A stretch of 64,000 nucleotides of DNA from contig CAVYQE010000001.1 in the NCBI GenBank assembly GCA_963770565.1, positions 768,001 to 832,000 of the forward strand, read 5' to 3'. Below the pieces are notes generated by a model. It searched no databases and had not been told where the DNA came from. It worked only from the letters and a program-made list of their open reading frames with translations. The stretch's first letter is position 1, and each line of letters starts with the position of its first letter. Source of the DNA: an uncultured Actinomycetota bacterium. Lineage in GTDB: Bacteria > Actinomycetota > Actinomycetes > JAFAQI01. Positions 35,172-49,487 of the stretch are shown one piece after another. The translations under genes and the position numbers were made by a program.

Positions 35172-36754
35172 AGCGGGATGTTGCCGTGCTTCTTCGGCGG
35201 CAGCGACTCGCGCTTCGTGCGGAGCAACCGCAACGCGCGAATCACCTCGGCCCGGGTGGCCGAGGGCTTGATCACCGCGTCGACGTATCCGCGCTCGGCC
35301 GCAATGTAGGGGTTGGCGAAGTGGTCCTCGTAGTCCGTGACCAGCTCGGCACGCTTGGACTCGGCATCGGGCTCGTCGGCCAGCGAGCGGCGATGCAAGA
35401 TGTTGACCGCGCCCTGCGCGCCCATCACTGCGATCTCTGCGGTCGGCCAGGCAAGGTTGACGTCGGCGCGTAGGTGCTTGGAGCCCATGACGTCGTACGC
35501 GCCGCCGTAGGCCTTGCGGGTGATGACGGTCACCTTCGGCACGGTCGCCTCGGCGTACGCGTACAGCAGCTTTGCGCCGCGCCGGATGATGCCGTTCCAT
35601 TCCTGCTCGGTGCCGGGCAGGAAGCCGGGTACGTCGACAAAGGTCAGAACCGGCACGTTGAACGCGTCGCAGGTCCGCACGAACCGGGCCGCCTTCTCCG
35701 ACGAGTCGATGTCGAGGGTGCCGGCGAAGTGCATGGGCTGGTTGGCCACGATGCCCACCGAGTGCCCGTCGATCCGCGCGAAGCCGCAGACGATGTTGGT
35801 CGCGAAGAGCGCGTGTGACTGGAGGAACTCGCCGTCGTCGACCACGTGCTCGATCACGGTGGTCATGTCGTACGGCTGGTTGGACGAGTCCGGGATGACG
35901 GTGTCGAGGAACTGATCGGGCTGCAGTGCGTCGAGGTCCTCCTCGTCGTACGACGGTGGCTCCTCGAGGTTGTTGCTCGGAAGGAAGGCCAGCAACGCCC
36001 GGGTGAGCTCGAGCGCCTCGGGCTCGTCGGCCGACATGAAGTGCGCAACGCCCGACTTGGTGTTGTGCGTGCGCGCGCCGCCGAGCTCCTCCATCGTGAC
36101 GTCCTCGCCGGTGACGGTCTTGATGACGTCCGGGCCGGTGATGAACATGTGCGAGGTCTGGTCGACCATGATCGTGAAGTCGGTGATCGCCGGCGAGTAG
36201 ACCGCGCCGCCCGCGCACGGACCCATCACCAGTGAGATCTGCGGCACGACGCCCGAGGCCATGACGTTGCGATAGAAGATCTCGGCGTAGAGTCCGAGCG
36301 CGACCACGCCTTCCTGGATCCGCGCCCCGCCGGAGTCGTTGATCCCGATCACCGGGCAACCGGTCTTCATCGCCAGGTCCATGACCTTGCAGATCTTCTC
36401 GCCGAGGACCTCGCCGAGTGAGCCGCCGAAGACGGTGAAGTCCTGGCTGAACACGCAGACCGCGCGGCCGTGCACCGTGCCGTGGCCGGTGACGACGCCG
36501 TCGCCGTACGGCCGGGTCGACTGCATGTCGAAGTCGTACGCCCGGTGCCGGGCGAGCGCGTCGAGCTCGACGAACGATCCCGGATCGAGCAGGGCCGCGA
36601 TCCGCTCGCGTGCGGTCATCTTGCCCTTGGCGTGCTGCTTGTCGATCGCGCGCTGCGAGCCGGCATGCACGGCTTCGTCAGTACGACGCTCGAGCTCGGC
36701 GATCCGGCCGGCGGTGGTGTGCGGGACAGGCGTCTCGTCCGGTGGGGCGCTCAT
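35168..36754 (-). CDS. pccB: Acyl-CoA (propionyl-CoA) carboxylase beta subunit
   Basis: [44 protein letters not shown]. Confidence 0.95.
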
Positions 36755-36774
36755 GACGCCGTAGCGTACGGCTG

Positions 36775-37587
36775 ATGTCCTCGCCCTGGAGTGACCTGGA
36801 CCGCGCGCCGCTGTCGGCGGCGCGCCTGCGCCACTCACTCGCCGGCGGTCCGGTCTGGCGAGAGATCCAGGTCCGTACGACGACCGAGTCGACGAACGCC
36901 GAGGTCGCCGAAGCGGCTCGAGCGGGCGCCGCGGAGGGCCTGGTCGTGATCGCCGAACACCAGAGCGCCGGCCGCGGCCGGATGGATCGCACCTGGTCGG
37001 CAGCGCCCCGGTCCGCGGTGTTGATGTCGGCGTTGCTGCGCCCGACCGTCGGGGTGTCGTCGTGGCCGCTGCTGCCGTTGCTGACCGGGCTGGCCGTTGT
37101 CGAGGCGCTCGACGCCGTCGCGGGTGTTACCGCCGCCCTGAAGTGGCCCAACGACGTGCTGATCGACGGCCGGAAGGTCGCCGGGATCCTGGTCGAACGG
37201 GTAGAGGAGGCGGTCGTGGTCGGCGTCGGGCTCAATGTCTCGACCCGCGCTGACGAACTGCCGGTCGAGACCGCCACGAGCCTCGCGCTCGCCGGCGGGT
37301 CGATCGACCGCGAGATTCTCACCCGCGAGGTGTTGCGCGGGCTGGCCCGCCGCTATCTCGGCTGGCTCGAGCGCGACGGCGCGCCCGGGTCGGTCATCCC
37401 GGCATATCGGGAGCGGTGCGAGACGATTGGCCTCCAGATCGAACTGCTGCTTCCTGGAGGGGACGTCGTGCGAGGCACCGCCACCGAGATCGACGACAGT
37501 GGGCGACTGGTCCTGCGCGACGAGGCGACCGGGACGGATCGCGCCTGGCTGGTCGGCGATGTCACCCATGTCCGAAAGGTGAGCTGA
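36775..37587 (+). CDS. birA: Biotin--protein ligase
   Basis: [33 protein letters not shown]. Confidence 0.95.
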
Positions 37588-37591
37588 CCTC

Positions 37592-38092
37592 ATGCCGTTC
37601 CCGGAGAGCATCCTCGACAACGGTGAGCAGGTGGTGCGCAACCTGCGCCCGCACTGGCGTCGGGTCGTGCTTCCGATCGTGGTGCTACTGGTCGTGATCG
37701 GTCTCGCGTCGTACGGGTGGTTCGCGTTGCCGTCAGGCAGCGCCCGCGGGCCGCTTCGCGACGTGATCCTGGCGGCTGCGCTGGTCATCATCGTGTGGTG
37801 GACGGTGCGTCCGTTGCTGACCTGGGTCACCACCCGGTACGTCATCACCAATCGGCGGGTGCTGATGCGAAACGGGGTCTTCTCGCGCACCGGCCGCGAC
37901 GTGCCGCTCACCCGGGTCAACGACGTGTCGTTCTCGCGCACGGTGGTCGAGCGGCTGATCGGCTCCGGCACGCTAACGATCGAGTCGGCCGGCGACCGAG
38001 GCCAGGTCCTCTTGCACGACGTGCCACACGTCGAGTCAGTCCAGCGCGACATCTACCGTCTCGTAGAAGACGAGGCACAACGACTGCGTTAA
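37592..38092 (+). CDS. Bacterial PH-domain membrane protein
   Basis: RPHW, TRYVITNRR, DVPLTRVNDVSF, GTLTIESAG. Confidence 0.9.
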   Translation: MPFPESILDNGEQVVRNLRPHWRRVVLPIVVLLVVIGLASYGWFALPSGSARGPLRDVILAAALVIIVWWTVRPLLTWVTTRYVITNRRVLMRNGVFSRTGRDVPLTRVNDVSFSRTVVERLIGSGTLTIESAGDRGQVLLHDVPHVESVQRDIYRLVEDEAQRLR

Positions 38093-38189
38093 CCCAGCGA
38101 GCCGTCAATACAACCACTCAGTTAGCGCACAGCGATCCGCTCATAACCGGCTACAGCACACGTCTGTGGAAGCGGCCGCGCGGGTGAGA

Positions 38190-38216
38190 GCAACCTTTGA
38201 GGGCATAACCGGCGTC
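38190..38216 (+). promoter_or_regulatory. Putative ECF (SigE-type) autoregulatory promoter
   Basis: GCAACC-N17-CGTC just upstream of the sigma gene. Confidence 0.5.
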
Positions 38217-38247
38217 ATAGTTGGTAGAGGCGTCGTGGAGGGGTTCT

Positions 38248-38790
38248 ATGCGGGTTGCGAGGAACGCGGCGGTGGAGGACTTCCGTGCCTACGCTGTCGC
38301 CCGTTCAGCGACGCTTCATCGCGCTGCGCTGCTATTGAGCGGTGACCGTGGACATGCGGAAGATCTCGTTCAGACGACGCTGATCAAGGTCTATGTGAAC
38401 TGGCGTCGCGTCGTGAAGGCGGGGAACGCCGATGCGTATGTCAATCGAGTGCTCGTCAACACGCATTTGTCATCACTGCGCAAGCGACGGTTGCGTGAGC
38501 TGCTCAGCGACTCGGTGCCCGAACCGGCACCGGTCGATCCGCGCTATCCGGTCGAAGCGTTGGAAGCGGTGTGGGCTGCCCTGGCCGGACTTCCGCCGCG
38601 CCAGCGGGCAGCGGTCGTGCTTCGTCACTACCAGGGGTTCAGTGAATCCGAGACCGCAGAGATCCTGAACACCTCAGTCGGGAACGTCAAGAGCCTGACC
38701 AGTCGGGGTCTCGCTGGGCTGCGACGCTGCCTCAGCCAGTCCGGTGGGGACGCAGTCGTCGCGGCCGTGCCAACCATGAGAGGGATCTGA
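38248..38790 (+). CDS. SigE-family ECF sigma factor
   Basis: AEDLVQTTL, WRRV, LPPRQRAAVVLRH, SESETAEIL, GNVKSLTSRGL. Confidence 0.93.
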   Translation: MRVARNAAVEDFRAYAVARSATLHRAALLLSGDRGHAEDLVQTTLIKVYVNWRRVVKAGNADAYVNRVLVNTHLSSLRKRRLRELLSDSVPEPAPVDPRYPVEALEAVWAALAGLPPRQRAAVVLRHYQGFSESETAEILNTSVGNVKSLTSRGLAGLRRCLSQSGGDAVVAAVPTMRGI

Positions 38791-39398
38791 TGACCGAGCA
38801 GTTGGACGACGTCCATGAGCTGTTTCAACGGATGACAGTCGGGTACACGCCGGTGCTTGACCTTGACTACGTGACGCGGGCGGCGGAGCACAAGCGGGCC
38901 CGGGTGCTCGCGAAGGCGGGCGGGGCGGTAGCAATCGTGCTCGTCGCATCTGCCGCGTTCGTCGGCGTCAGCGTGACGCACCACCGGGCCGCCCCCGCGC
39001 CCGCGTCGCTCGGAGACCAGTCGTTGGTTACCCCGAGAGCGCTGGCCGGTACTCCGGTCCAAACAACGTCAGTTGTGATTGACCCTCGTTTGTGGACCTA
39101 CGGCCCCCCGTCCGCAAACACGGCTACCCCGGCAACGACCGCGGTGCGGGATTTCGATCAATACACAGGTAGGGACGCGATTCCTGCTGGTACAAGCGTG
39201 ACGATCGGACTTCTGACCGGCAAGACCCTCGATGGCGGGGTAACGCAAGCAACCCTTGTCTATGGCTACTCGGATTACGAACCTAAATGCCCCGATTTTG
39301 GGCCTGGTGGACCAAGCGATGCCAAGGGGTGCACCGGCTGGACATTCCTGGACGCAAACACGGGTAAGCAGATTCTCAGTACTTGGACTCTCAACTGA
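38790..39398 (+). CDS. Single-TM protein, putative anti-sigma factor
   Basis: ATG overlaps sigma stop; short cytoplasmic N-terminus, one TM, extracellular domain with Cys pair. Confidence 0.65.
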   Translation: MTEQLDDVHELFQRMTVGYTPVLDLDYVTRAAEHKRARVLAKAGGAVAIVLVASAAFVGVSVTHHRAAPAPASLGDQSLVTPRALAGTPVQTTSVVIDPRLWTYGPPSANTATPATTAVRDFDQYTGRDAIPAGTSVTIGLLTGKTLDGGVTQATLVYGYSDYEPKCPDFGPGGPSDAKGCTGWTFLDANTGKQILSTWTLN

Positions 39399-39508
39399 CG
39401 GCGAGCCCCGTTCGCTGACAGTCAGAAGCGCCTCGCAAACCGACCGGAGGTGCTGTTCGGGCGCAACGGTGGACTGATAGTCGGGTCGACTGCGACAGGA
39501 TGGTCGCC

Positions 39509-39871
39509 ATGGCGACAGCTTGGCGCTCGTGCGTGATCATGACGCAGGACGTTGCACGCATGGCCGCTTTCTGGAGGCTGGCCTCAGGCCTCAGGCCAGC
39601 CTTTGAAGGCGACGACGAGGTGGTCTTGACCTCTGACGGGACCCCCGGTCGGCACCCCGGAATTGTCATCATGGCGGGTCAGCCGTCAAGTGACGGTGCC
39701 GTCCACATTGACATCAATTCAGACGACATGCTGGCAGATCTCAGTCGGTTACTGCGCGAGGGAGCAACACTCGTCGCAGATCATGGCGAGGACTGGAAGA
39801 TGCTTCACGACCCGGACGGCAATCCCTTCTGTCTCCGAGGGCCCGCGAAACCTGTGGCGGAGCCGCACTGA
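39509..39871 (+). CDS. VOC/glyoxalase-like protein
   Basis: MAAFW, VHIDI, GATLV, LHDPDGNPFC. Confidence 0.85.
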   Translation: MATAWRSCVIMTQDVARMAAFWRLASGLRPAFEGDDEVVLTSDGTPGRHPGIVIMAGQPSSDGAVHIDINSDDMLADLSRLLREGATLVADHGEDWKMLHDPDGNPFCLRGPAKPVAEPH

Positions 39872-39991
39872 GGTTTCGATCCAGGACATGTGGTCGAGGC
39901 GTCGGTCCGTCCCGTAGGCAGGATCCTTGCCGGGCGGTAGTCGTGCGGTCATGCGCCAAACGGCAGGCGAGAACGGTGAGATGATTTCGCT

Positions 39992-40258
39992 GTGACGGCT
40001 AGCGACCTCCCCGGCTTGGACCCCACCTTGCCCGCACCCAGGCGTCCAGTTATTTGGCGCGTTCTCATGTTGTGCTGGGTGGCGGTAGGTGTCGCGGCCG
40101 CGATCGTGGTGGCGCTGGCGGTTCACGGCGTGATCGGCGCAAAGACGGGCGCAGCTATCGTCACCGCGGTGTATCTCGCGTTCGGCGCCATCGCTTTGAG
40201 CCGAGCATGGATGGCCCGCCGCGTCGACATCGAAGTCGACGCACGCGGCCAGCAGTAG
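39992..40258 (+). CDS. Small two-TM hypothetical protein
   Basis: 88 aa with two hydrophobic segments; fills gap between spacers. Confidence 0.55.
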   Translation: MTASDLPGLDPTLPAPRRPVIWRVLMLCWVAVGVAAAIVVALAVHGVIGAKTGAAIVTAVYLAFGAIALSRAWMARRVDIEVDARGQQ

Positions 40259-40277
40259 CCGAACATACGTGATGCTC

Positions 40278-40562
40278 TCACTCGTCTCCGATGTAGCCCG
40301 TCGCCGGATCGATCATGCCGAGAAAGCCGCGGATGGCGTCGCGGTGCTCCTCCGTAGACGGGTTTGGTGGGCCGCTACTCCCAAAGCCGTAGCCCTCGTT
40401 AGGCCCGCTCAACCATTCGTACGCCCATCCGCCGTCGGCGGCCTGACGAACGGCGAAGTCTTCACCATCGACCTCCAGCGTCAGCAACACGGGGCCGGGG
40501 TGCCCTTCGTCGCCGTCGTACAAGGCGGGGACCGGAGTCCAGTCCCCGTTCCCAGTGCTCAT
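40278..40562 (-). CDS. Small acidic hypothetical protein
   Basis: LEVDGEDFAV...YEWLSGPNEGYGF...IRGFLGMIDPATGYI resembles an uncharacterised actinobacterial family. Confidence 0.7.
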   Translation of the reverse strand: MSTGNGDWTPVPALYDGDEGHPGPVLLTLEVDGEDFAVRQAADGGWAYEWLSGPNEGYGFGSSGPPNPSTEEHRDAIRGFLGMIDPATGYIGDE

Positions 40563-40593
40563 AACGCGAGGCTATTGGGATGTCCGGTTGAAA

Positions 40594-40627
40594 GTGCCGA
40601 TATCTGGCCCGTCACGATGGTCGGCAC
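40594..40627. repeat. Intergenic bulged hairpin repeat, copy 1
   Basis: GTGCCGATATC-TGGCCCGTC-ACGATGGTCGGCAC. Confidence 0.8.
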
Positions 40628-40686
40628 AGTGCCGCATCCCTGCCGCTCGGGCGCACAAGTGCGGCTGATCTGGGATCCTGGCTTGC

Positions 40687-41160
40687 ATGTCGCAGTCAGT
40701 TGTGGCCGAAGTTAAGAGCGTGCTCGCCTTTGGTGAGGGTGTGCCCGGCAGCGCCGCTCTGGACGGCTACGCACCAGCCAACCGCGAACATTTCGGATTC
40801 CGAGCCCAGGTCTTCATTGGACAGCAAGGCGACGATCGCTCGGACAGTTTCGACATCACGGTGTGCTCGCCCTCTTGGTTCGCAGAGGGCGTCTCGCAGC
40901 AGGGCCTGGGGCGGTTCAACCGTCTGTTACGTGCGCTGCCTGAGGGGGTGCTTCCGGGCGCGGGCATCTGGTTCATGCGTCAGTGGGAGCGTTCTGAGTT
41001 CGAGACCGCTCTGAATGCCGTCTGCGACGCTGCGAGCGGGGGGCCAGACTGGGGAAGCGTCGCGTCGCGCATCGGCAGGTTGATCCCATGGGAGTTCGAC
41101 TACAAGTTCGACGCTCATGTCGACAGCCGGTACGGGGAGCCGTTTCCCGTTATCCAATAA
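40687..41160 (+). CDS. Immunity protein Imm8-like
   Basis: F..QVFIG...SDSFDITVCSPSW...GPDWGSVASRIGRLIPWEFDY. Confidence 0.75.
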   Translation: MSQSVVAEVKSVLAFGEGVPGSAALDGYAPANREHFGFRAQVFIGQQGDDRSDSFDITVCSPSWFAEGVSQQGLGRFNRLLRALPEGVLPGAGIWFMRQWERSEFETALNAVCDAASGGPDWGSVASRIGRLIPWEFDYKFDAHVDSRYGEPFPVIQ

Positions 41161-41232
41161 TGCCGTTCTTCAACGGGCTTACCCGGCGCTATCGTGCGGT
41201 CGTTCGGGTCGCCGTCGAGGGAGAATGTGCTC

Positions 41233-41652
41233 GTGGGAGAGGGTGCACGGGAGCTCTGGCTACGCGACGAGGTCTCACGCCTCGCAGCGTTGATCGAAGC
41301 GCCGCCACGGGAACTTGTGAGTTTCGACTCACGGGTCGACATGGGCGCGCCCTACGTCTGGGTCGAGCCAGGCGGGCCCTACCACTGGATCGTCAAGGAG
41401 CGTGGACAGACGCTTGAGCACCGCACGACACAGGATGTTGACGACATCCTGTTCTGGTCATTCGAGGCGACGACTGGCTCGATGGCCTCGCAATGGGCGG
41501 CTCGGCATCCAGATGAGCAACACGACTTCCGAGTCGGGATGTGGGCCAAGCAACAGGAACTTCTGATGCGGCTCGACCCGCGCTGGGTGAACCGGTGGCG
41601 CGACCGGCTGATCGTGAGGTCCCGGACGCCGAGGCGTTGCCCCCCAGTCTGA
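41233..41652 (+). CDS. Immunity protein Imm63-like
   Basis: LAALIEAP, YHWIVKERG..LEHRTTQDVDDILFW, DFR...KQQELL..LDPRW. Confidence 0.78.
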   Translation: MGEGARELWLRDEVSRLAALIEAPPRELVSFDSRVDMGAPYVWVEPGGPYHWIVKERGQTLEHRTTQDVDDILFWSFEATTGSMASQWAARHPDEQHDFRVGMWAKQQELLMRLDPRWVNRWRDRLIVRSRTPRRCPPV

Positions 41653-41730
41653 CTTCCCGGCACGCTGCAGAAGAGGCTTCGTTCTCGCCCGTTTCACCAG
41701 CCCTGGTTTGAGCCGTTGCACCGGGAGTCG

Positions 41731-42157
41731 TCAAGCGGGCGCTTGATCGAACACGCTGAGCCCTCCCCGAGGGCCGAGTTCAAGGGTCGCGCTTCGCACC
41801 TTGTAGGAGTGACCGCAGGAGTCACCGGTTGAGCGTTGGTAGTACCGCACTCGAGCTGCTGAGGCGAGGAGCACGCGTCCGCGCGCGTTAGCGATCTTGA
41901 CCGAGACATCGGTGACATGGTCGAACTTCGCCCCTTGAACACTGACCTGGGATCCTTGAAACGTGGAGCATCGCTGGTCTGCGCAAACCGTGATCGTCTT
42001 CGCGGTCGGGTGTGCGCCGAAGTATTGAGACGCGAGGACGAGGACGCCGGACTGTAATGGCTCCGTCGGTGAGCATTCACCGCTGTAGGCGCAGCTAGAA
42101 AGCGCGCCCACCGCAAGGATCGCCGCGAGTCGAATAATGATTCAGCAACCTACTCAC
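41731..42157 (-). pseudogene. Lipoprotein gene with apparent +1 frameshift in signal peptide
   Basis: ORF 41731-42111 has lipobox LSSC; deleting one A near 42142 joins GTG 42157 to give MSRLLIIIRLAAILAVGALSSC. Confidence 0.5.
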
Positions 42158-42408
42158 CTGGTTGTGCGCCCCGGTTGACCTTCGGCGATCGTGATCAAAT
42201 CGTTCTGGGTGTGGACCACCTATACGTGTCTTGCGGTCGGCAGCCCCTGTGATCGTCGCGGTGTGGCCGCCCGTGCGCGAAGTGCCGTTCCTCGACGCAC
42301 ATTCCCGGCGTTCCCGACATCCGATAAGGCCACGGGAGCTTCGTGGCGTAGCGGGTCTCGTGAGCCTGATTCGCTGCGGGGCCGGCGGGTGTGATTTAGA
42401 TTCTCGCC

Positions 42409-43602
42409 ATGGGCCAGTTCGGGTTGAGGTCGTTACGTGTAGCGGGCTCGGTCACGGTTATGGCCGTGGTCGCGATGATGGCGGCCCCGATCGCGGCTGG
42501 CGCGGCGGGGAGCGCGCCGCACCTGAGGAAGGTCGCGGTGTTCCGGCTGGGTAAGGACCCGGACGCGATCGGGTTCACGCCCAACAGCAAGTCCGCCTAC
42601 ATCACCAATAGCGGCTCGGGCACGGTTACTGCGGTCCACACCGGCGCGGTGTTGCGCCTCGCGACGGTCAAGACGGGAAGCGACCCGGACGCAATCGTAA
42701 TGAGCCCGAATGGGAAGACCGCGTACGCAGTGAACAGCGGGTCCGCGTCGGTGACGCCGATCTCCACCGCGACCGACAAGGCTCGCCGGCCGATTCGCGT
42801 GGGGAGCGGACCGTGCGCGATCGCGATCTCATCGCGCACGAAACGGGGTTATGTCACGAACTGCGGTTCCGGCACGGTCACACCGTTCAGCTTGGCCACG
42901 AACAAGCCGGGTCCGCCAATTGCGGTGGGGACCGGTCCTGACGCGATCGTGATCACGCCCAACGGCAAGACTGCGTACGTCGCGAACTTCATCGCGGGCA
43001 CGGTCAGCCCGGTCAACTTGCTGACGAACCTGGCAGGTCCACCGATCACGGTCGGCCATCAAGCGGTCACGATGGCGATCACCCCAAACGGTCGGCAGGT
43101 GTATGTCGCGAACTTCGAGTCGAACACGGTCACCCCGATCAACACCACCACGAACAAGGCAGGACCGGCGATCAAGGTCGGCCGCGGACCGGATGCTCTC
43201 GCGGTTGCGGATAATGGCAAGACGGTGCTCGTCGCGAACTACGGTTCGGGTTCGGTCACCGCGATCACGGTCAAGACCAACAAGATCCGCAAGACGATCA
43301 AAGTCGGCAAGAACCCCGAATCAATCGCACTCATGAGCCACACGACGTGGGCGTTGGTCGCCAACGAGGGGTCAGACACTCTCACCGAGTTCAATGCAGT
43401 GACCTTCGGCAAGACCCAGGAGCTGCGAGTCGGCAAGAACCCGAACGTGGCACGCACCACCCCCAACGGCCGCTACCTCTACGTCCTCGCCCAAGGCTCC
43501 CCTCCCTCTGCAGCGCACCTCACCCCCGCCCTCCACGCCCGCCGGCCATGCGACGCGGCCGTCGATACCTGCCCTGGAGAGGGTGAGGCCCTCAACCAGT
43601 AA
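42409..43602 (+). CDS. Secreted YncE/YVTN-type beta-propeller repeat protein
   Basis: Signal peptide and ~8 repeats of VGxxPxAIxxTPxGKxAYVxNxxSxTVTP. Confidence 0.9.
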   Translation: MGQFGLRSLRVAGSVTVMAVVAMMAAPIAAGAAGSAPHLRKVAVFRLGKDPDAIGFTPNSKSAYITNSGSGTVTAVHTGAVLRLATVKTGSDPDAIVMSPNGKTAYAVNSGSASVTPISTATDKARRPIRVGSGPCAIAISSRTKRGYVTNCGSGTVTPFSLATNKPGPPIAVGTGPDAIVITPNGKTAYVANFIAGTVSPVNLLTNLAGPPITVGHQAVTMAITPNGRQVYVANFESNTVTPINTTTNKAGPAIKVGRGPDALAVADNGKTVLVANYGSGSVTAITVKTNKIRKTIKVGKNPESIALMSHTTWALVANEGSDTLTEFNAVTFGKTQELRVGKNPNVARTTPNGRYLYVLAQGSPPSAAHLTPALHARRPCDAAVDTCPGEGEALNQ

Positions 43603-43672
43603 TGGCTCAACACGAGGAGGTGCCGCCGCGGCGACAACCCTCCGCGCACGAGCATGGAACGGCATAGGAGAG

Positions 43673-43704
43673 GTACCGATATCGTCCGCGACGATGGTCG
43701 GCAC
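43673..43704. repeat. Intergenic bulged hairpin repeat, copy 2
   Basis: GTACCGATATC-GTCCGCG-ACGATGGTCGGCAC, framed by GAACGGCA (43657) and TGCCGTAG (43719)/TGCCGTTC (43744). Confidence 0.8.
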
Positions 43705-43805
43705 TCAGCCGACAGAGGTGCCGTAGCGTCTGGCCACCAGGGGTGCCGTTCGCGGGCCATTCGAGAACGCCGCTCGATGGAAGCCAGGCGAAGTACGGTG
43801 GCAAG

Positions 43806-44057
43806 ATGCGGCTAGCCAGGTGGAGCGCTGCTGTCGTTGTCATCCTGGGCGCTGGGCTTGCGGGCGTGTTCACAGGTGCGTATGAGCAGATCTGTCTTCT
43901 GGACTCAGCGGACTACTGCTATACGACGCACGACTGGGTGTCGACCCAGACTCTGGCCGGAGCGGCGATTGGCATCGTCGCCGGTCTCCTCCTCGTGATC
44001 AGTTGGGTGTGCGGAGAGCGACTCATTCGACGACGACAACGACATCGCGTCGTGTAG
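43806..44057 (+). CDS. Small two-TM protein with Cys-x7-Cys loop
   Basis: TM-CLLDSADYC-TM-basic tail. Confidence 0.55.
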   Translation: MRLARWSAAVVVILGAGLAGVFTGAYEQICLLDSADYCYTTHDWVSTQTLAGAAIGIVAGLLLVISWVCGERLIRRRQRHRVV

Positions 44058-44084
44058 TGCCGTTAGCCGGCTGGGTGGAGGTCG

Positions 44085-45431
44085 TCAGCCGAGCACTCGC
44101 CGTGCCAGGTCGAGATGGAAGCGTACGGAGAGCAACAGGTCGTCAACGTGCACCCGTTCGTTGGCGTTGTGGGCGCCGGCCTCGATCACCTCGGTCGGTG
44201 TGGCCCGGAACGGGCTGAAGCCGTATGCCGCAGTGCCGGCCGCGGCGCGCAGGTAGTTGCTGTCCGTGAACCCGGTGCACAGCCGCGGGATGATGGTGGC
44301 CGAGTCATCGTCCGCCGCGAGGAAGGCGGCGATGGCTGCTGGCACGGGGCCGTCGAGTGGTGAGCTCGACGCCGGGGTGATCGGCTCGGGCCACCCGAGC
44401 TCGTAGGCGATGTCGTCGCCGAGCAGCGACCTGACATGCGCCTCGACGTTGTCCTGCGTCGTACCGGGAAGGATCCGGCAATCCACCTCGGCGGTGGCCC
44501 GCGCCGGCATGACGTTGCGTTGCTCGGATCCCCACAGCATGGTCGGCGCGAGCGTCGATCCCATCAGGGCCGGCAGGATGTGCACCAGGGTCGGATGGAG
44601 GGCGCCCGCCTCAGCCACCGCTCGGCCAAGGTCCGGCTCGTCGCGGCCGAGAACGGCACGCAGCAACGCTGTAAACACCGGCGTGGGAGCCGGATCGGGG
44701 AGACCATTGCCCAGTCTCACCAGCAGTCGAGCCAGCATCGGCACGGCGTTGTTGCCGAGCGTCGGCTGCGACGCGTGGCCCGCCTCGCCCGACGCCGTGA
44801 TCTGGAATGGCAGCGTGCCCTTCTCGCCGACGGCGTACATCACGACCTCGCGTCCATCGGCCAGGGGCAACCGTTCACCGCCGCCTTCATTGACACTGTG
44901 GGTCGGCCGGATGTCGGCCCGCTCCTTTAGCAGCCAGCGCATCCCGACGTCCGCGAAACCGTCCTCCTCGTCCGCCACTGCGATGAACCACAGGTCGCCG
45001 GTCGGTCGGAATCCGTTGCGCGCCAGTTCCGCCATCGCCACAGCCCGGGCCGCGACCTCGTTCTTCATGTCTACGGCGCCGCGACCCCACAGCCAGCCGG
45101 CATCGTCGACGATGGCCTCGAACGGCGGGTGAGTCCAGTCGCGCGGGTCGCACGGCACGACGTCCGTGTGGCCGACGAACGCCAGCGATTCCGCATCGGG
45201 GGACGCGCCCCGGATGCGTGCCACGAGATTGGCCCGGTCCGGGTCGCGGGCGACCAGTTCAACTTCGACACCGTTGCGGGCAAGGTAGTCCTGCAGGTAC
45301 GCCGCACACCGGGTTTCGTTGCCCAGCCCGGGCTCGCGGGCGTTGGTCGTGTCGAGCCGCATCAGGTCGCGGGCAACCTCGATCACCTCGTCATGAAGGC
45401 GCGAGAGGTCGAGCCCTGCCGGTCCCGTCAT
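44085..45431 (-). CDS. M20/M25/M40 family metallo-hydrolase
   Basis: GHTDVVP, GRGAVDMK, ADEE, NEGGG, GFTD, AHNANE. Confidence 0.93.
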   Translation of the reverse strand: MTGPAGLDLSRLHDEVIEVARDLMRLDTTNAREPGLGNETRCAAYLQDYLARNGVEVELVARDPDRANLVARIRGASPDAESLAFVGHTDVVPCDPRDWTHPPFEAIVDDAGWLWGRGAVDMKNEVAARAVAMAELARNGFRPTGDLWFIAVADEEDGFADVGMRWLLKERADIRPTHSVNEGGGERLPLADGREVVMYAVGEKGTLPFQITASGEAGHASQPTLGNNAVPMLARLLVRLGNGLPDPAPTPVFTALLRAVLGRDEPDLGRAVAEAGALHPTLVHILPALMGSTLAPTMLWGSEQRNVMPARATAEVDCRILPGTTQDNVEAHVRSLLGDDIAYELGWPEPITPASSSPLDGPVPAAIAAFLAADDDSATIIPRLCTGFTDSNYLRAAAGTAAYGFSPFRATPTEVIEAGAHNANERVHVDDLLLSVRFHLDLARRVLG

Positions 45432-45493
45432 ACGTCACTCCCAAGCCGGTTGAGCATCCAGGCACTGATGGGCAAGGCCCAACAGGACGAAAC

Positions 45494-46924
45494 CTAGGCG
45501 AATCGCGAGTTCGTTGGTGGCGGGGGGCAGGAATCGCGGCGGCCAGGCCGTTGATAGGCCGCCGGGCTCGTCGAATCGTCGGGGTCGTCGGGATCGTCGC
45601 CGGCCAGCCGATACGGGGCGACGATGCGGCTGCTTCCGGCGGGGGTGGTCCATTCCAGGTAGCCGTTGGGCAGGGTTCGGACGGTCCAGCCGGCGTGAGT
45701 CTTGCAGCGGTGGTGGCGTCGACATCGCGGACACACGTTCGTCTCGTCGGACGGTCCGCCGACATCGTGCGGCACGGTGTGCTCACCGTCACAACGCGAT
45801 GACGGAATCGAGCAGCCGGGGTAGTCGCAGTTGGGGCGAACCCCGAGCATGAAGTCGCGGAGCACCTTGTTGGGCCGGTAGCTTGCTCGCCCGATGGCGA
45901 TGAGGGCACCGGTGTCTTCGGCGGTGCAGAACCGCTGCCATTCGCCCTCGGCGGCCAGCTCCCGAAGGTGTTCGGCGGTGATCGGGCCGTAACCAGCCAG
46001 CTCGCCCGGATCGTTTCGCAAGCCCAGCAGCGTCTTGATCCCGCCGGTGACCTGCACCGTCACCCGCGCACGGGCGGAGGACGGAAGGTCGCGGTCGGTG
46101 ACCGCACCGGCGCACAGGTCGGCGAGGGCGTCCGCGCGGCGCTGATCCACGGTCCGGATCTGGTCGAGCCTCCCGCTCTTGACCTGCTGCCGGTCGCTGG
46201 CACCGTACTGGTCCGCGATCTCGGTGAGGCTGTTCATGACAACCTTTGCGTCCTCAGCGCGCAGCTCGGCGTACACCGCGGCCATCCCGTCCGGTAGTGG
46301 CCAGGACTCGATCCGGCGCCCACGGATCGCGCGTTGCCGCTTCGCTTCCGCAGCCGCGGTGTCGGCCTTGATCACTTCTCGGCGCAGCTTGCGCCGCCAG
46401 GCAGTCACATCCCGGTTGATCTCCCAGCTGTCGACCATCGCCTGGTCGACCTGCTCGACCTGCCACGGCTCGAGCCCCGCGGTTGCATCCACGACCGCGC
46501 GCGCCATCAGCCAGCTGATCCCGCCCCGCTCCAGCGCCGACCGCACCCCAGGCAGGTTGGAGAGCACGGTCCGCGCGGTGTGCAGGTCGGTCCCGGCGCT
46601 GTTCAAGGTCTGGCCCGTGATCAAGGCGATGATCTCGGGACCGAAGTCATCGGTGCCGAACGGACCAGCGACGGCGTGCTGCGGGCTCGCCGCGCCGGCG
46701 ACCGCTTCCGCACGCCGGAGCTGGGTCCACGCGAGGAGGCGGTCCCATACGCCGAGCACCCGCTCCCGATCCGCGTCCGACAGGATCTCTTCGCGCAGGT
46801 GGTCCAGCACGGACAGCATCCGTACGCCGGGCCGCTCGACCTCCAGCTTGTCGAGGAGCCTCGCCGGGCAGTTGGCCAGCAGCTCGTCGACCGCTGCGGC
46901 GCAGTCGTCGCGGAACTCGAACAC
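45494..46924 (-). CDS. DUF222/13E12-type HNH endonuclease
   Basis: QRRADALADL, GYGPI, CDYPGC, EH, NVCPRCRRHHRCKT, WTTPAG; likely GTG start inside LexA box. Confidence 0.92.
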   Translation of the reverse strand: MFEFRDDCAAAVDELLANCPARLLDKLEVERPGVRMLSVLDHLREEILSDADRERVLGVWDRLLAWTQLRRAEAVAGAASPQHAVAGPFGTDDFGPEIIALITGQTLNSAGTDLHTARTVLSNLPGVRSALERGGISWLMARAVVDATAGLEPWQVEQVDQAMVDSWEINRDVTAWRRKLRREVIKADTAAAEAKRQRAIRGRRIESWPLPDGMAAVYAELRAEDAKVVMNSLTEIADQYGASDRQQVKSGRLDQIRTVDQRRADALADLCAGAVTDRDLPSSARARVTVQVTGGIKTLLGLRNDPGELAGYGPITAEHLRELAAEGEWQRFCTAEDTGALIAIGRASYRPNKVLRDFMLGVRPNCDYPGCSIPSSRCDGEHTVPHDVGGPSDETNVCPRCRRHHRCKTHAGWTVRTLPNGYLEWTTPAGSSRIVAPYRLAGDDPDDPDDSTSPAAYQRPGRRDSCPPPPTNSRFA

Positions 46925-46932
46925 GTGTTCGA
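46917..46932. promoter_or_regulatory. LexA (SOS) box
   Basis: Perfect palindrome TCGAAC-ACGT-GTTCGA matching the actinobacterial consensus. Confidence 0.92.
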
Positions 46933-46953
46933 TCCTAAGCGCTCCCACCGACA
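46932..46953 (-). promoter_or_regulatory. PafBC / RecA-NDp promoter motif
   Basis: Minus strand TGTCGG-TGGGAGCGCT-TAGGAT = TGTCGG-N10-TANNNT. Confidence 0.85.
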
Positions 46954-47035: not shown

Positions 47036-47749
47036 TCAGCGACCGCCGCGGATGGCGCGCAGGTGAAGGAACATCGGGATCCGGTGCCACGGCCGGGACG
47101 GGTCAGGGTCGGTCGGTTCCCGGATCCGGTCGATCAGCAGGCCGGCTTCAGCGAGCGCATCGACGTAGTCCGCGATCGGACGGTGCTCGCTGTGGAAGGT
47201 CATTGTCAGGCCGTCGCGGGTGCACCGGTCCGAGTACTGATGCCGGTCGTACCAGTCGTCGGTGATGACGAACGGCGAAGCGACGTCGTCGGCGTTGTCG
47301 AACCGTCCGACCGCGTTGACCGGGTGCACGATCGCCGCCACGAACACTCCACCGGAACGCAACACCCGGCCGGCCTCGGAGATGGCCTGCGCGTAGTCGT
47401 CGATGTCCTGCAACGACATGAACGCGATCGCGAGGTCGGCGGATCCGTCGCGCAACGGCAGCCGCGCGCCGTCCGCGATCAGCACGTGTCCGTGCGGGTC
47501 GGGATGGTCGGCGGCCGCGCGGGCGAGCTGTGCGGAGCCGTCGATCGCGACGACCCGATGTCCACGCGCGACGAGGTCCCGCGAGACCCGGCCCTCGCCG
47601 CAGCCGATGTCGACGGTCAACTCGCCTGGGGCGGGCAGCAGGTCGAACAACGCCTCGCGATGGAATCGCCAGTAGCTGTCGTGACCCGGAGCTCGCGCCC
47701 AGGCGATCCAGTCCGCCGCCTCTTGGTCCCATGCACCGCGAAGTGTCAC
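47036..47749 (-). CDS. Class I SAM-dependent methyltransferase
   Basis: WDQEAADWIAWAR, VDIGCGEGR, EAGRVL. Confidence 0.9.
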   Translation of the reverse strand: MTLRGAWDQEAADWIAWARAPGHDSYWRFHREALFDLLPAPGELTVDIGCGEGRVSRDLVARGHRVVAIDGSAQLARAAADHPDPHGHVLIADGARLPLRDGSADLAIAFMSLQDIDDYAQAISEAGRVLRSGGVFVAAIVHPVNAVGRFDNADDVASPFVITDDWYDRHQYSDRCTRDGLTMTFHSEHRPIADYVDALAEAGLLIDRIREPTDPDPSRPWHRIPMFLHLRAIRGGR

Positions 47750-47786
47750 GGACGCCAGTTTGCCGGTTGTCCGCTTTGATAGTTGC

Positions 47787-49487
47787 GTGCCACGGCAGAG
47801 GTCACTCCGGGACCGTGACGAGCGACGGATCGCGTTTGCGCTGATCGTGTCCTTCGCGGTGACCGTTGCGGTCGCCGTCGCCGCAGCGGCAACCCGGAGC
47901 GGATGGGGCACGGTCGTCGCGCTGTTCGCGAGCGTCGTCGCCGAGGTCATGATCGGCCGTCGCTCGTCGGCTCTGCTGGGTGCCCTCCGCTGGTCGAGCG
48001 CCGGCCCGCCCACGCGTACGGCGCTCCGGATGGTCGCCGTCCTGCTGTTGGCGGCTCGCTGCTTCGGGTCCTCGATCGTCATCGGCACCGCCATTGCGGC
48101 CGTCGTACTCATCACTGCCGCGATCGCGGCCGAGGCCTTGCGCTACCTGGTCGCCCGGATGCGACGGCTGCCGCTGGTCAGCCGCAACCTCGACCTGGGC
48201 GACTTCGCCGTACCCGACCTGCCACCAGCGATTGCGACCGATCCGTCCACGGCCGATGCGGCTGCCTCGGTCGTCGCGGCACTGGGCCTCGCGATCGCGA
48301 TGCACGTCACCACATCGAAGGGCGTCGCCGCGGCCGGTCTGGCACTTGCGGCCCTGATCGCCGCGCTGCCGGTGGTCGTGCTCGGCACCCACCTGCGAAC
48401 CCTGATCCGCGCGCAGCTGCGCAGCCGTCTCACGACCGCAGCAACCACCGCGATCGAGGCGCTGGCGCCCGAGGTCGCGCTGTATTTCGACGCGAGCGCC
48501 GAGGAGCTCTACCAGTTGCGGATGTGGTTGGCCCCGGTGGCACAACTCGGCCGGCGCGCGGTCGTCATCCTGCGCAGCTACGAGGTCTTCGACGCACTGA
48601 GCGATGTCACGCTTCCGGTGATCTGCAGCCCGTTCAACGGGACCATCGCGTCGCTGCCGTTGCCGCGCCGGGTCGTCACGCTGTTCCCCACTCACACCGG
48701 CAACAACCTGTCGATGCTGCGCCGGCCCGAAGTGCGGAGCGTGTTCGTCGGGCACGGTGACAGTGACAAGCCCGACAGCGTCAACCCGTTTGCGCGGGTG
48801 TACGACGAGGTGTGGGTGGCCGGCCCGCTCGGTCGCCGCCGGTACGCCCAGGCGAGGATCGGGGTGGCCGACCGGGCGATCGTCGAGATCGGCCGGCCGC
48901 AGGCCCAGGCGGCCTCGACCAGGCCGCCGCAGGAGCCCACCATCGTCTACGCGCCGACCTGGGAAGGCTGGGGCAACGACCCGCACCACAGCTCGCTGGC
49001 CCAGATCGGCGCGACCCTGATCGAGCGGCTGGTCGACCGCCCGGATGTGCGGATTCGCTATCGGCCACATCCGCTGACCGGGCAGCGCGACCCGGCCTTG
49101 CGCGCCGCGCACCAGCGGATCATCAGGATGGTCGGCCGGGTACCGGAGGACGAGCCGCTCGCGGTGACGCTCGCGGGTGCATCCGGGGTGATCGGCGATA
49201 TCTCGGCGGTCCTCAGCGAGTTCCTGCCGTACGACCGGCCGTACGCCGTCGTCGACACCAGAGGCCTGGGTTCGACCCGGTTCATCGAGCGATTCCCGAC
49301 CGCGGCCGGCGGGTTCGTGCTCGGCCCCGATCTCGATCGGCTGGACGCGTTCATCGGCGCCGCCCTCGGCGGGCCCGACCAGACGTCGACCGCCCGCGGG
49401 GACCTGATGGCCGACGCCCTCGGTGATCCGGCGACGTCGCAGGACCGGTTCGCCGACGCGGTCAGCCGGCTCCTCGCCGCCGAATAG
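47787..49487 (+). CDS. Second membrane-anchored CDP-polyol phosphotransferase (TagF-like)
   Basis: GHGDSDK, NPFARVY, IGRPQ, VYAPTWEGW, RPHPLTG; paralogous to 33192-34979. Confidence 0.8.
   Translation: MPRQRSLRDRDERRIAFALIVSFAVTVAVAVAAAATRSGWGTVVALFASVVAEVMIGRRSSALLGALRWSSAGPPTRTALRMVAVLLLAARCFGSSIVIGTAIAAVVLITAAIAAEALRYLVARMRRLPLVSRNLDLGDFAVPDLPPAIATDPSTADAAASVVAALGLAIAMHVTTSKGVAAAGLALAALIAALPVVVLGTHLRTLIRAQLRSRLTTAATTAIEALAPEVALYFDASAEELYQLRMWLAPVAQLGRRAVVILRSYEVFDALSDVTLPVICSPFNGTIASLPLPRRVVTLFPTHTGNNLSMLRRPEVRSVFVGHGDSDKPDSVNPFARVYDEVWVAGPLGRRRYAQARIGVADRAIVEIGRPQAQAASTRPPQEPTIVYAPTWEGWGNDPHHSSLAQIGATLIERLVDRPDVRIRYRPHPLTGQRDPALRAAHQRIIRMVGRVPEDEPLAVTLAGASGVIGDISAVLSEFLPYDRPYAVVDTRGLGSTRFIERFPTAAGGFVLGPDLDRLDAFIGAALGGPDQTSTARGDLMADALGDPATSQDRFADAVSRLLAAE

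Follow-up and report, generated by a model that had tools for sequence, protein, structure and literature searches.

A probable gene-cassette array distinct from integrons in a genus-specific insertion hotspot of an uncultured actinobacterium

In a 64,000-nucleotide stretch of the genome of an uncultured Actinomycetota bacterium (GenBank assembly GCA_963770565.1, contig CAVYQE010000001.1, positions 768,001–832,000; hereafter the window), a block of small genes lies downstream of the conserved pair birA-bPH. This block (the island) is in my view probably a degenerate representative of a gene-cassette array family distinct from integrons, lodged in a genus-specific insertion hotspot. Arrays of this kind appear to be previously undescribed, with single genes exchanged at a 13-letter word and not at hairpin sites. 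An earlier note, made from the letters of the window, had described positions 38,093–44,084 as small, unrelated genes in mixed orientation and read them as an integron-like array; the list of Pfam assignments (Table 1) agrees with that description. The analysed genome, G000 (window at C1:768001–832000), is a metagenome bin of 11 contigs and 4.43 Mb, 94.9% complete. Its named relatives are soil metagenome-assembled genomes labelled Mycobacteriales or Frankiaceae bacterium. All genomes compared are given here by G numbers; G032, G040 and G064 were used in tallies only.

The spacers of the island share an oriented word of 13–16 nt, CGnA(G/T)AGGTGCC^G(C/T)TC, hereafter the box (written without the caret, CGnA(G/T)AGGTGCCG(C/T)TC). 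Its core, TGCCGTT, emerged from a de novo word count in five of the ten island spacers (numbered S0 to S9), against 0.2 expected, which bears out the claim of the earlier note that the spacers have words in common. Only 4 of 653 sets of ten spacers from the genome match this count, the island itself being among the four, and the island is the only place in G000 where the word occurs in three spacers within 6 kb. I then used a position weight matrix (PWM) trained on ten box instances outside the island, taken from the contig C6 region, G003 and G002. Of the ten island spacers, it ranks five among the best-scoring 5% of the 2,027 spacers in the genome (binomial p 6e-5), with a sixth at 5.9%, and the eight listed hits in island spacers are all on the + strand, two of them in convergent spacers. 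The box is present in six to eight of the ten spacers. No 8-kb stretch of the genome has more intergenic PWM hits than the island, which shares first place with C6:179699, and half of the eight consensus matches of the whole window sit in the ~1 kb of island spacers. The box is enriched in the island and uniform in its orientation there. Among the individual sites, the half-box of S5 resembles the right end of an IS1111-like element described below as well as the right flank of box S7, and the core of the S6 variant, AGAGGCTTCGTTC, matches the box that precedes the VOC gene in G003. Two other readings of the word were tried and rejected. For a promoter of the extracytoplasmic function (ECF) type, no consistent -35 element was seen by eye, and a promoter makes no sense for boxes of which two PWM hits sit in convergent spacers. 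For a Shine-Dalgarno sequence, no start codon was seen by eye at the right spacing. Another run of G000 spacers has the 7-mer GCGTGTA in five of ten spacers (p ~6e-9), which is more extreme than the island word.

Relatives have far cleaner arrays of this box; there, consensus matches with at most two mismatches were counted and compared with 200 shuffles each. A 7.7-kb contig of G003 (C156, locus L020) has 11 sites, 11/11 on the + strand (0.83 expected; 0/200 shuffles), with one site in nearly every spacer among six minus-strand and five plus-strand genes. In G022, which belongs to another genus, 16 sites (L072; 14/16 on the + strand, 1.79 expected, 0/200 shuffles) are found between ~13 small genes of mixed orientation. 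In G085, from another family, there are 11 sites (L080; 9/11 on the + strand, 1.97 expected, 0/200 shuffles), and nine sites fall inside 3.6 kb. Across the 36 genomes of the family, 60 copies of the exact 13-mer were found, against 13 of a reversed control, and the 13-mer forms same-strand clusters in G006, G015, G020, G023 and others; among 201 sampled genomes of the class, its frequency mostly does not exceed background. No sequence conservation beyond the box was found, and the array genes are mostly without a family, the exceptions including Imm33-like, ankyrin and DUF2625 genes. These three are carried by the box array on G006:C200, directly downstream of which lies a recA gene with a LAGLIDADG intein (L073, 13169–15751). 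Tandem units of 51–53 nt are present at contig ends (L075 1–140, on G015:C75; G015:C100; G023:C45), each with a perfect box beside a CCGCCTTGGCGG hairpin, and may be empty or minimal array units.

The other box cluster of G000 lies in an integrative and conjugative element (ICE)-like region at C6:160000–195394 (L023, L024). This region encodes an intact and a decayed TrwC relaxase, a coupling protein and a tyrosine integrase, and also holds IS630 and IS110 elements and Imm1, SIR2-like and ECF sigma genes. Its + boxes span 177442–184151, and - boxes are found at 172099, 173821, 185807 and 186169.

Judged from comparison of the congeneric genomes, single genes of this block do move. The M20 block (44050–45506; the M20 gene with 75 nt upstream, 44085–45506) is found at a different locus in each of three congeners. 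Homologues of G000 C1:1479790 and 1479839 enclose it in G001, the corresponding G000 site being an empty 49-nt gap, and in G003 it lies between homologues of C2:153035 and C2:142700. The VOC block (39455–39873) has a copy in G003 that is 85% identical and lies between homologues of G000 C2:521152 and C2:523705. The empty M20 site of G000 (C1:1479790–1479839) adjoins a TCGAAC-N4-GTTCG word, which I take to resemble the actinobacterial LexA box, and in G001 (L018 from 11895) the M20 gene is followed by three CCCACGCATGGCCCATGGGTGG-type palindromic repeats.

The edges of such blocks are informative. Homology of the VOC block with G003 starts at 39455, in box S1, and that of the M20 block begins at the TGCCGT of S9. 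At box S7, 36 nt are common with G004:C14 from TGCC rightwards, while the left side is unrelated; a block that the G003 array has in common with G003:C50 ends within a box; and a 78-nt element (E3) common to G003 and contig C6 of G000 starts at GGTGCC. A 670-nt block with a gene for a 191-amino-acid (aa) protein is common to the G003 array and G004:C14 at 92% identity, and the genes to either side of it are unrelated. At its right end identity runs up to ...AAG(A/G)AGTGCC and then stops; at its left end, where there is a 52-nt indel, identity starts 6–7 nt past a box in both genomes. With six or more edges in a 6-nt core, and spacers of 50–150 nt, the pattern is unlike random breakage. As aligned, these homology breakpoints lie inside the box: the coincidence of breakpoints with the motif, which the earlier note had named as a check, was found for the edges of the VOC, M20, S7, 191-aa and C50 blocks. 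The box-edge breakpoints would fit a crossover at about GGTGCC^GYTC.

These observations suggest the following scheme. A unit would usually be one small gene in either orientation, and units would be separated by the asymmetric 13–16 nt box, kept in a single orientation within an array. Cassettes would be exchanged by site-specific recombination, for which the box would be the site, with the crossover at about GGTGCC^GYTC, so that a cassette would end in ...AGGTGCC and begin with GYTC. The island would have grown cassette by cassette, from the VOC gene to the M20 gene. The ECF sigma/anti-sigma pair has no box, and these genes are therefore probably not cassettes; I take the pair to be an older resident.

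A stoperator-like regulatory site, at which a mobile-element repressor or silencer keeps foreign cargo quiet with no recombination involved, might produce some of the same features. Such sites would be expected to be asymmetric 13-mers placed in short intergenic stretches and oriented alike within an array, and one box array does lie in the ICE-like region of C6. However, the G003 sites all point one way among genes on both strands, boxes S3 and S6 sit in convergent spacers, and a binding site does not explain why, at six or more edges, homology should break off midway through the box; no candidate repressor was found. I regard a regulatory site as quite improbable.

The position of the island provides a second line of evidence. 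The birA-bPH left flank is kept in 38 of 41 relatives at the DNA level. In all seven loci from other genera of the family, bPH is followed after a gap of 15–374 nt by a homologue of the Glyphos_transf-like (glycerophosphotransferase-like) gene at 47760–49487, whereas all five genomes of the genus to which the window belongs have differing cargo between the two: the 9.7 kb studied here in G000, an ECF sigma gene and a 432-aa gene in G002, a GntR gene, a fused ECF gene and a hydrolase gene in G004, a DUF222 and a mycothiol transferase gene in G001, and a flavin monooxygenase gene with two small genes in G003. The interval after birA-bPH is a genus-specific insertion hotspot. The expanded interval claimed in the earlier note is thus confirmed relative to this family, GtrA, purK and purE are indeed present downstream of the block, and the relatives do not carry the same genes in a fixed order. 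ECF genes lie 3' of bPH in G002 (39% identity) and G004 (29% identity) as well. The flanks of G003 are 90–97% identical to those of G000, with homology ending at 38149 and resuming at 45555, and a contig from an independent rhizosphere sample (run X7) joins 38105 to 45555 across 2,664 other letters, in the G003-type arrangement. The PH-domain gene of G003 has 232 nt (window 37663–37894) swapped for 100 unrelated nt (L016 5033–5132); because of this internal replacement, it may be disrupted there.

The same hotspot raises the question of an ordinary flexible islet, formed by illegitimate recombination at a permissive place and by segment swaps through the flanks, in which the shared words would be chance or a weak by-product of ancestry with mobile-element cargo. 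The closest relative, G003, differs from G000 by one block swap (38150–45555 against 2.66 kb) and not by single genes, the other hotspots of the genus have background box density, the consensus count over the locus is marginal and the spacer lengths are ordinary. Such an islet accounts poorly, however, for the PWM enrichment with all hits on one strand, for the island being the sole TGCCGTT cluster of the genome, for VOC and M20 block edges that coincide with the word, and for the unmistakable arrays that the same box makes elsewhere. For this degenerate locus an ordinary islet is possible, and I would give it a minor share of the probability.

A number of results weigh against a cassette array. 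The TGCCGTT word and the box were spotted by inspection before testing. When consensus matches are simply counted over 11.7 kb, there are 18, against 11.9 expected, a number that 10 of 200 shuffles reach; the count over the whole window, 8 against 6.4 expected, is not significant. The PWM finds no box in spacers S0 and S2 (best score in S0, 4.2), S5 and S9 hold only a right half-box after a stop codon and fail the PWM, and the ECF pair is not box-delimited. Box density in the other genus hotspots is 0.24–0.39 per kb. Pairwise alignments place the breakpoints only to within a few bases, and all genomes compared are metagenome bins. Excised circles or intra-island joints were not seen in contigs at ~3x depth, from runs X1 and X2, which hold the same strain as short contigs and cover the island partly. 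The unusual spacer length that had been claimed did not hold up: the median gap is 101 nt in the island and 68.5 nt in the genome (rough gene calls), p 0.93. Neither IntI nor attC was found, contrary to the claim of an array akin to a cluster of attC sites lacking integron integrases (CALIN). Searches for IS110-family, tyrosine and serine recombinases gave no consistent partner of the arrays, and IS110-family genes were not found in array-bearing G006 (100% complete), G022, G015, G041 and G020. Tyrosine recombinase genes do lie 0.6–2.4 kb from three arrays (G085, G006:C25, G004:C14), and only catalytic motifs are common to them. The earlier suggestion that genes were added one at a time at a short non-canonical site therefore stands in part. 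The oriented box, the VOC and M20 blocks at other loci, and the cleaner arrays with breakpoints in the box speak for it; the ECF pair and spacers S0 and S2 without a box, the degenerate boxes and the lack of a visible recombinase or excision do not.

A canonical integron remnant, a CALIN whose attC sites were missed by eye, would share the small, unrelated genes that are typical cassette cargo. attC sites are imperfect palindromes of 57–141 nt with RYYYAAC and GTTRRRY cores, but neither the island nor the rest of the window has an RYYYAAC...GTTRRRY core pair. With TIGR02249, whose cut-off is 265, nothing in the genome scores above 77.9 bits, and the matches are Xer-type; Phage_integrase has no match in the window, as had been claimed. 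The spacers fold with z between -1.2 and +1.5 relative to shuffles, save for -2.2 in one 27-nt spacer, a search of 36000–46000 with Rfam (E up to 1) gave no match, and the gene orientation is mixed. The chance of a CALIN is in my view practically negligible.

In all-spacer pairwise Smith-Waterman comparisons, only the pair S4-S8 stands out (z 9.5). It corresponds to a ~50-nt element, E1, found twice in the island (40591–40657 and 43670–43735) in the same orientation and 3,077 nt apart. E1 consists in order of GAGGTGCCGAT, a 14-bp bulged hairpin, a further GTGCCG and the tail CAGAGGTGCCGT, which is made up of the box. A covariance model of E1 finds ten strong copies in five of the 36 family genomes (three in G000, four in G003 and one each in G002, G005 and G017), with flanks and neighbours that are always unrelated. 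Since the neighbours have no common protein family, E1 is not a gene-specific leader. A structured RNA was considered and rejected, as covariation is weak: three pairs change on both sides, and 36 of 500 shuffles reach that number. In the third G000 copy (C6:179659), the tail box is interrupted by a 1,547-bp element of the IS110/IS1111 family of insertion sequences (IS).

A second repeat family, E2, is a ~75-nt imperfect palindrome, CGCTGATCTTCG...CGCGAAGATCA. In G000 it is found at C1:1297244–1297313, C2:226618–226702, C11:164217–164292 and ~7 more sites, and elsewhere at L039 161–235 and 973–1050 and at L017 11979–12058; the island has none. Two direct E2 copies in G003 flank a 931-bp unit, consisting of E1 and a lipoprotein gene, that is absent from the homologous 24-nt gap in G000 (C11:136052–136075), and one E2 copy adjoins the M20 block of G003.

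The IS1111-like element is present in G000 as three 99.8%-identical copies (C6:179700–181246, C6:1763–3309 and C2:464797–466343), of which one sits in a full box, that of the E1 tail, and the other two have partial boxes on their left flank. Its ends, ...GGTGAT^GCC on the left and ...GGGATGCC^GTTC on the right, resemble box halves, and an IS110-family enzyme is therefore a candidate recombinase. A second IS110-family gene starts beside the box at C6:185807. The element also has subterminal AACGGAGYGGGGCC inverted repeats and a ~400-nt non-coding 3' part that is likely a guide-RNA region. Among the tyrosine recombinases near arrays, that of G006 has decayed Xer-like homologues in G000 (C2:462681–463587); no box array adjoins these, nor a 90%-identical relative on G017:C53.

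These insertions invite another explanation, in which boxes are preferred IS110/IS1111 targets, or remnants of element ends, that spread or persisted in accessory DNA, and recombination at the box did not move the intervening genes. The IS1111-like copy in one box, the partial boxes beside the two others and the IS110-family gene at C6:185807 would all be accounted for, but one box per gene, a uniform orientation and box-bounded homology blocks of cassette length would not, and five array-bearing genomes, the complete G006 among them, yielded no IS110-family gene. I judge it very unlikely. A cassette array would allow a more specific conjecture, which is possible at best: a capture system of Mycobacteriales-related soil Actinomycetota, parallel to integrons and mechanistically unrelated to them, in which single-gene circles would be inserted and excised at the 13-nt GGTGCC^GYTC core by a trans-acting, RNA-guided DEDD recombinase of the IS110/IS1111 type, these same half-sites delimiting that enzyme's own element. 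With its four GTGCCG repeats, the E1 hairpin might then serve as the attI-like primary docking site.

The genes of the island and its flanks, together with the boxes and E1 copies, are listed in Table 1. No family could be assigned to five small open reading frames (ORFs), namely those of 202, 88, 94 and 104 aa and the lipoprotein. The block is compositionally foreign. Its G+C content is 0.637, against 0.695 in the remaining window, in agreement with the earlier claim of a lower value, and its genes have a median G+C at third codon positions (GC3) of 0.73, the genome median being 0.86 (Mann-Whitney p 7.6e-5; the lipoprotein gene was taken in frame 41694–42116 for this list). The median gene length is 146 aa in the block and 281 aa in the comparison set. 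The Imm8 gene is an orphan, with no toxin gene beside it. Neither Imm8 nor Imm63 was found in the 35 other genomes of the family, the closest relatives of Imm8 are at most 75% identical, and a scan of metagenome contigs with Imm8 gave no relative; the same scan with the anti-sigma candidate gave a single 1-kb contig at 58% identity. The beta-propeller gene is built of 126-nt blade repeats and has a 78%-identical homologue in G004, the similarity being limited to the coding part and no boxes adjoining. The orphan Imm8 and Imm63, the VOC protein and the secreted and membrane proteins suggest that the cargo is a store of defensive or niche genes.

Some gene models deserve comment. The lipoprotein reading holds only in frame 41731–42126(-), where the lipobox was found; frame 41694–42116 was rejected, and the start is probably a non-canonical codon slightly upstream. 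The DUF222 gene (45494–46948) has about a dozen paralogues in G000 (at least 11 other places; 24–66% identity), and, since the break in homology falls within this ORF, G000 and G003 have different last ~20 codons. Taken at their longest, the methyltransferase ORF, 47036–48115(-), and that of the Glyphos_transf-like gene, 47760–49487(+), overlap by ~355 nt; methyltransferases of relatives have 238–290 aa, and the true start is therefore probably near 47800.

Table 1. Genes, boxes and E1 copies of the island and its flanks, in window coordinates. Carets mark the proposed crossover.
Feature	Position	Strand	Evidence and remarks
birA	36775-37587	+	Pfam; conserved left flank
bPH_2 (bacterial PH-domain gene)	37592-38092	+	Pfam; conserved left flank
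ECF sigma, SigE family	38221-38790	+	Pfam; NCBIfam TIGR02983 172 bits, cut-off 141.6
202-aa single-pass membrane protein, probably the anti-sigma of the adjoining ECF sigma	38790-39398	+	Translation; no family; overlaps ECF sigma gene
Box S1, ACCGGAGGTGCT^GTTCGG	39443-39460	+	PWM 9.8-10.0, top 3.2%; left edge of putative VOC cassette
VOC/Glyoxalase_6 gene	39500-39871	+	Pfam
88-aa membrane protein with hydrophobic stretches	39992-40258	+	Translation; no Pfam/NCBIfam family
Box S3, AACATACGTGAT^GCTCTC	40262-40279	+	PWM 9.5-10.6, top 2.3%; convergent 19-nt spacer
94-aa acidic protein	40278-40562	-	No Pfam/NCBIfam family
E1 copy 1	40591-40657	+	Covariance model 60.9 bits; box-like head, hairpin, GTGCCG repeat
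E1 copy 1 tail box	40633-40650	+	PWM 9.3-9.9
Imm8 immunity-protein gene	40687-41160	+	Pfam 58 bits
Half-box S5, TAA stop + TGCC^GTTCTTC	41155-41172	+	TGCCGTT present; fails PWM
Imm63 immunity-protein gene	41194-41652	+	Pfam 57 bits
Box S6, variant AGAAGAGGCTTC^GTTCTC	41669-41686	+	PWM 8.3, top 5.9%; convergent spacer
Lipoprotein gene, lipobox ...AVGALSSC (LSSC)	41731-42126	-	Translation; no Pfam family
Box S7, GCGCGAAGTGCC^GTTCCT	42275-42292	+	PWM 9.7-9.8, top 3.3%
Secreted YNCE/lactonase-type beta-propeller	42409-43602	+	Pfam, NCBIfam
E1 copy 2	43670-43735 (region 43666-43753)	+	Covariance model 74.1 bits
E1 copy 2 boxes	head 43666, tail 43711	+	PWM 10.5-11.3 (head) and 7.8 (tail)
Strong box beyond E1 copy 2	43736-43753	+	PWM 13.2-13.7
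104-aa membrane protein with hydrophobic stretches	43743-44057	+	Translation; no family
Half-box S9, GTG TAG TGCC^GTTAGCC	44050-44067	+	Exact TGCCGTT; fails PWM; left edge of putative M20 cassette
M20 peptidase gene	44085-45431	-	Pfam
DUF222 gene	45494-46948	-	Pfam; right flank
Box-like word CCAGGCC^GTTGATA	45540-45556	+	By eye, no PWM score; weak; G003 homology resumes at 45555
Methyltransferase	47036-48115	-	Pfam; right flank
Glyphos_transf-like gene	47760-49487	+	Pfam; right flank

Integrons are the textbook engine of gene acquisition one gene at a time, and they are essentially Gram-negative. If the cassette-array interpretation is true, abundant uncultured soil actinobacteria would own an independent route to single-gene capture, with a site so short that current annotation tools all miss it. 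It would explain part of the flux of small ORFan and orphan-immunity genes, and the 13-mer would offer a handle on a mobile gene pool in metagenomes. It would also define a question of enzymology, namely which recombinase cuts at GGTGCC^GYTC; were this an IS110-family bridge recombinase, it would be the first such enzyme seen in nature to move cargo other than its own element.

In the literature covered, a limited collection, only general tyrosine-recombinase work and no integron-like cassette system was found for Actinobacteria. Several known systems can be compared with the box arrays. Xer pdif modules are delimited by 28-nt XerC/XerD sites with dyad symmetry and alternating orientation, whereas the box is asymmetric, its flank is not conserved and one orientation is kept. 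According to PMC9283540, the L5 repressor sites (stoperators) are asymmetric 13-mers in short intergenic spaces with an orientation that follows transcription. Cluster A mycobacteriophages carry more than 20 of these 13-mers in an actinobacterial mobile genome, which resembles the box; stoperator orientation, however, tracks transcription, and the sites are not breakpoints of homology. The box differs on both counts.

IS110 elements, as described in PMC11208160, recognise short asymmetric targets via a bridge RNA. Their target is short and asymmetric, their insertion is orientation-specific and their donor is circular, points in which they can be likened to the box arrays; these enzymes are known to move their own element only, and neither a transposase nor a guide RNA is carried by the cassettes. 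In Bacteroidales, the rAID-1 arrays described in 10.1101/471110 likewise show skewed G+C, orphan immunity genes and repetitive integron-like intergenic sequence. Comparable features in the island are Imm8 and Imm63, the GC3 difference and the box, and the G006 array has cargo of the orphan-immunity type (Imm33-like, ankyrin). A conserved XerD-family recombinase heads each rAID-1 array, and the arrays are confined to Bacteroidales. In contrast, no conserved head recombinase was found for the box arrays (window; G085, G006, G004), and most of their cargo has no immunity annotation.

Integrons and CALINs likewise hold mostly single, unrelated genes, often of unknown function, between sites that point the same way, and each cassette carries two half-sites at its ends, as in the box arrays. 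This arrangement of single-gene units with one-way sites is found with the box (8/8 in the island, 11/11 in G003) and not with attC. The insertion of the IS1111-like element in a box may also be likened to members of IS1111 that target attC sites, as reported in PMC3001079. The differences are that the box is a 13–16 nt asymmetric word with no hairpin and no R and L boxes, that IntI is absent, and that the box arrays have genes on both strands, an Actinomycetota host and no conserved adjoining recombinase. The closest precedents for the box arrays are integrons and the rAID-1 arrays.

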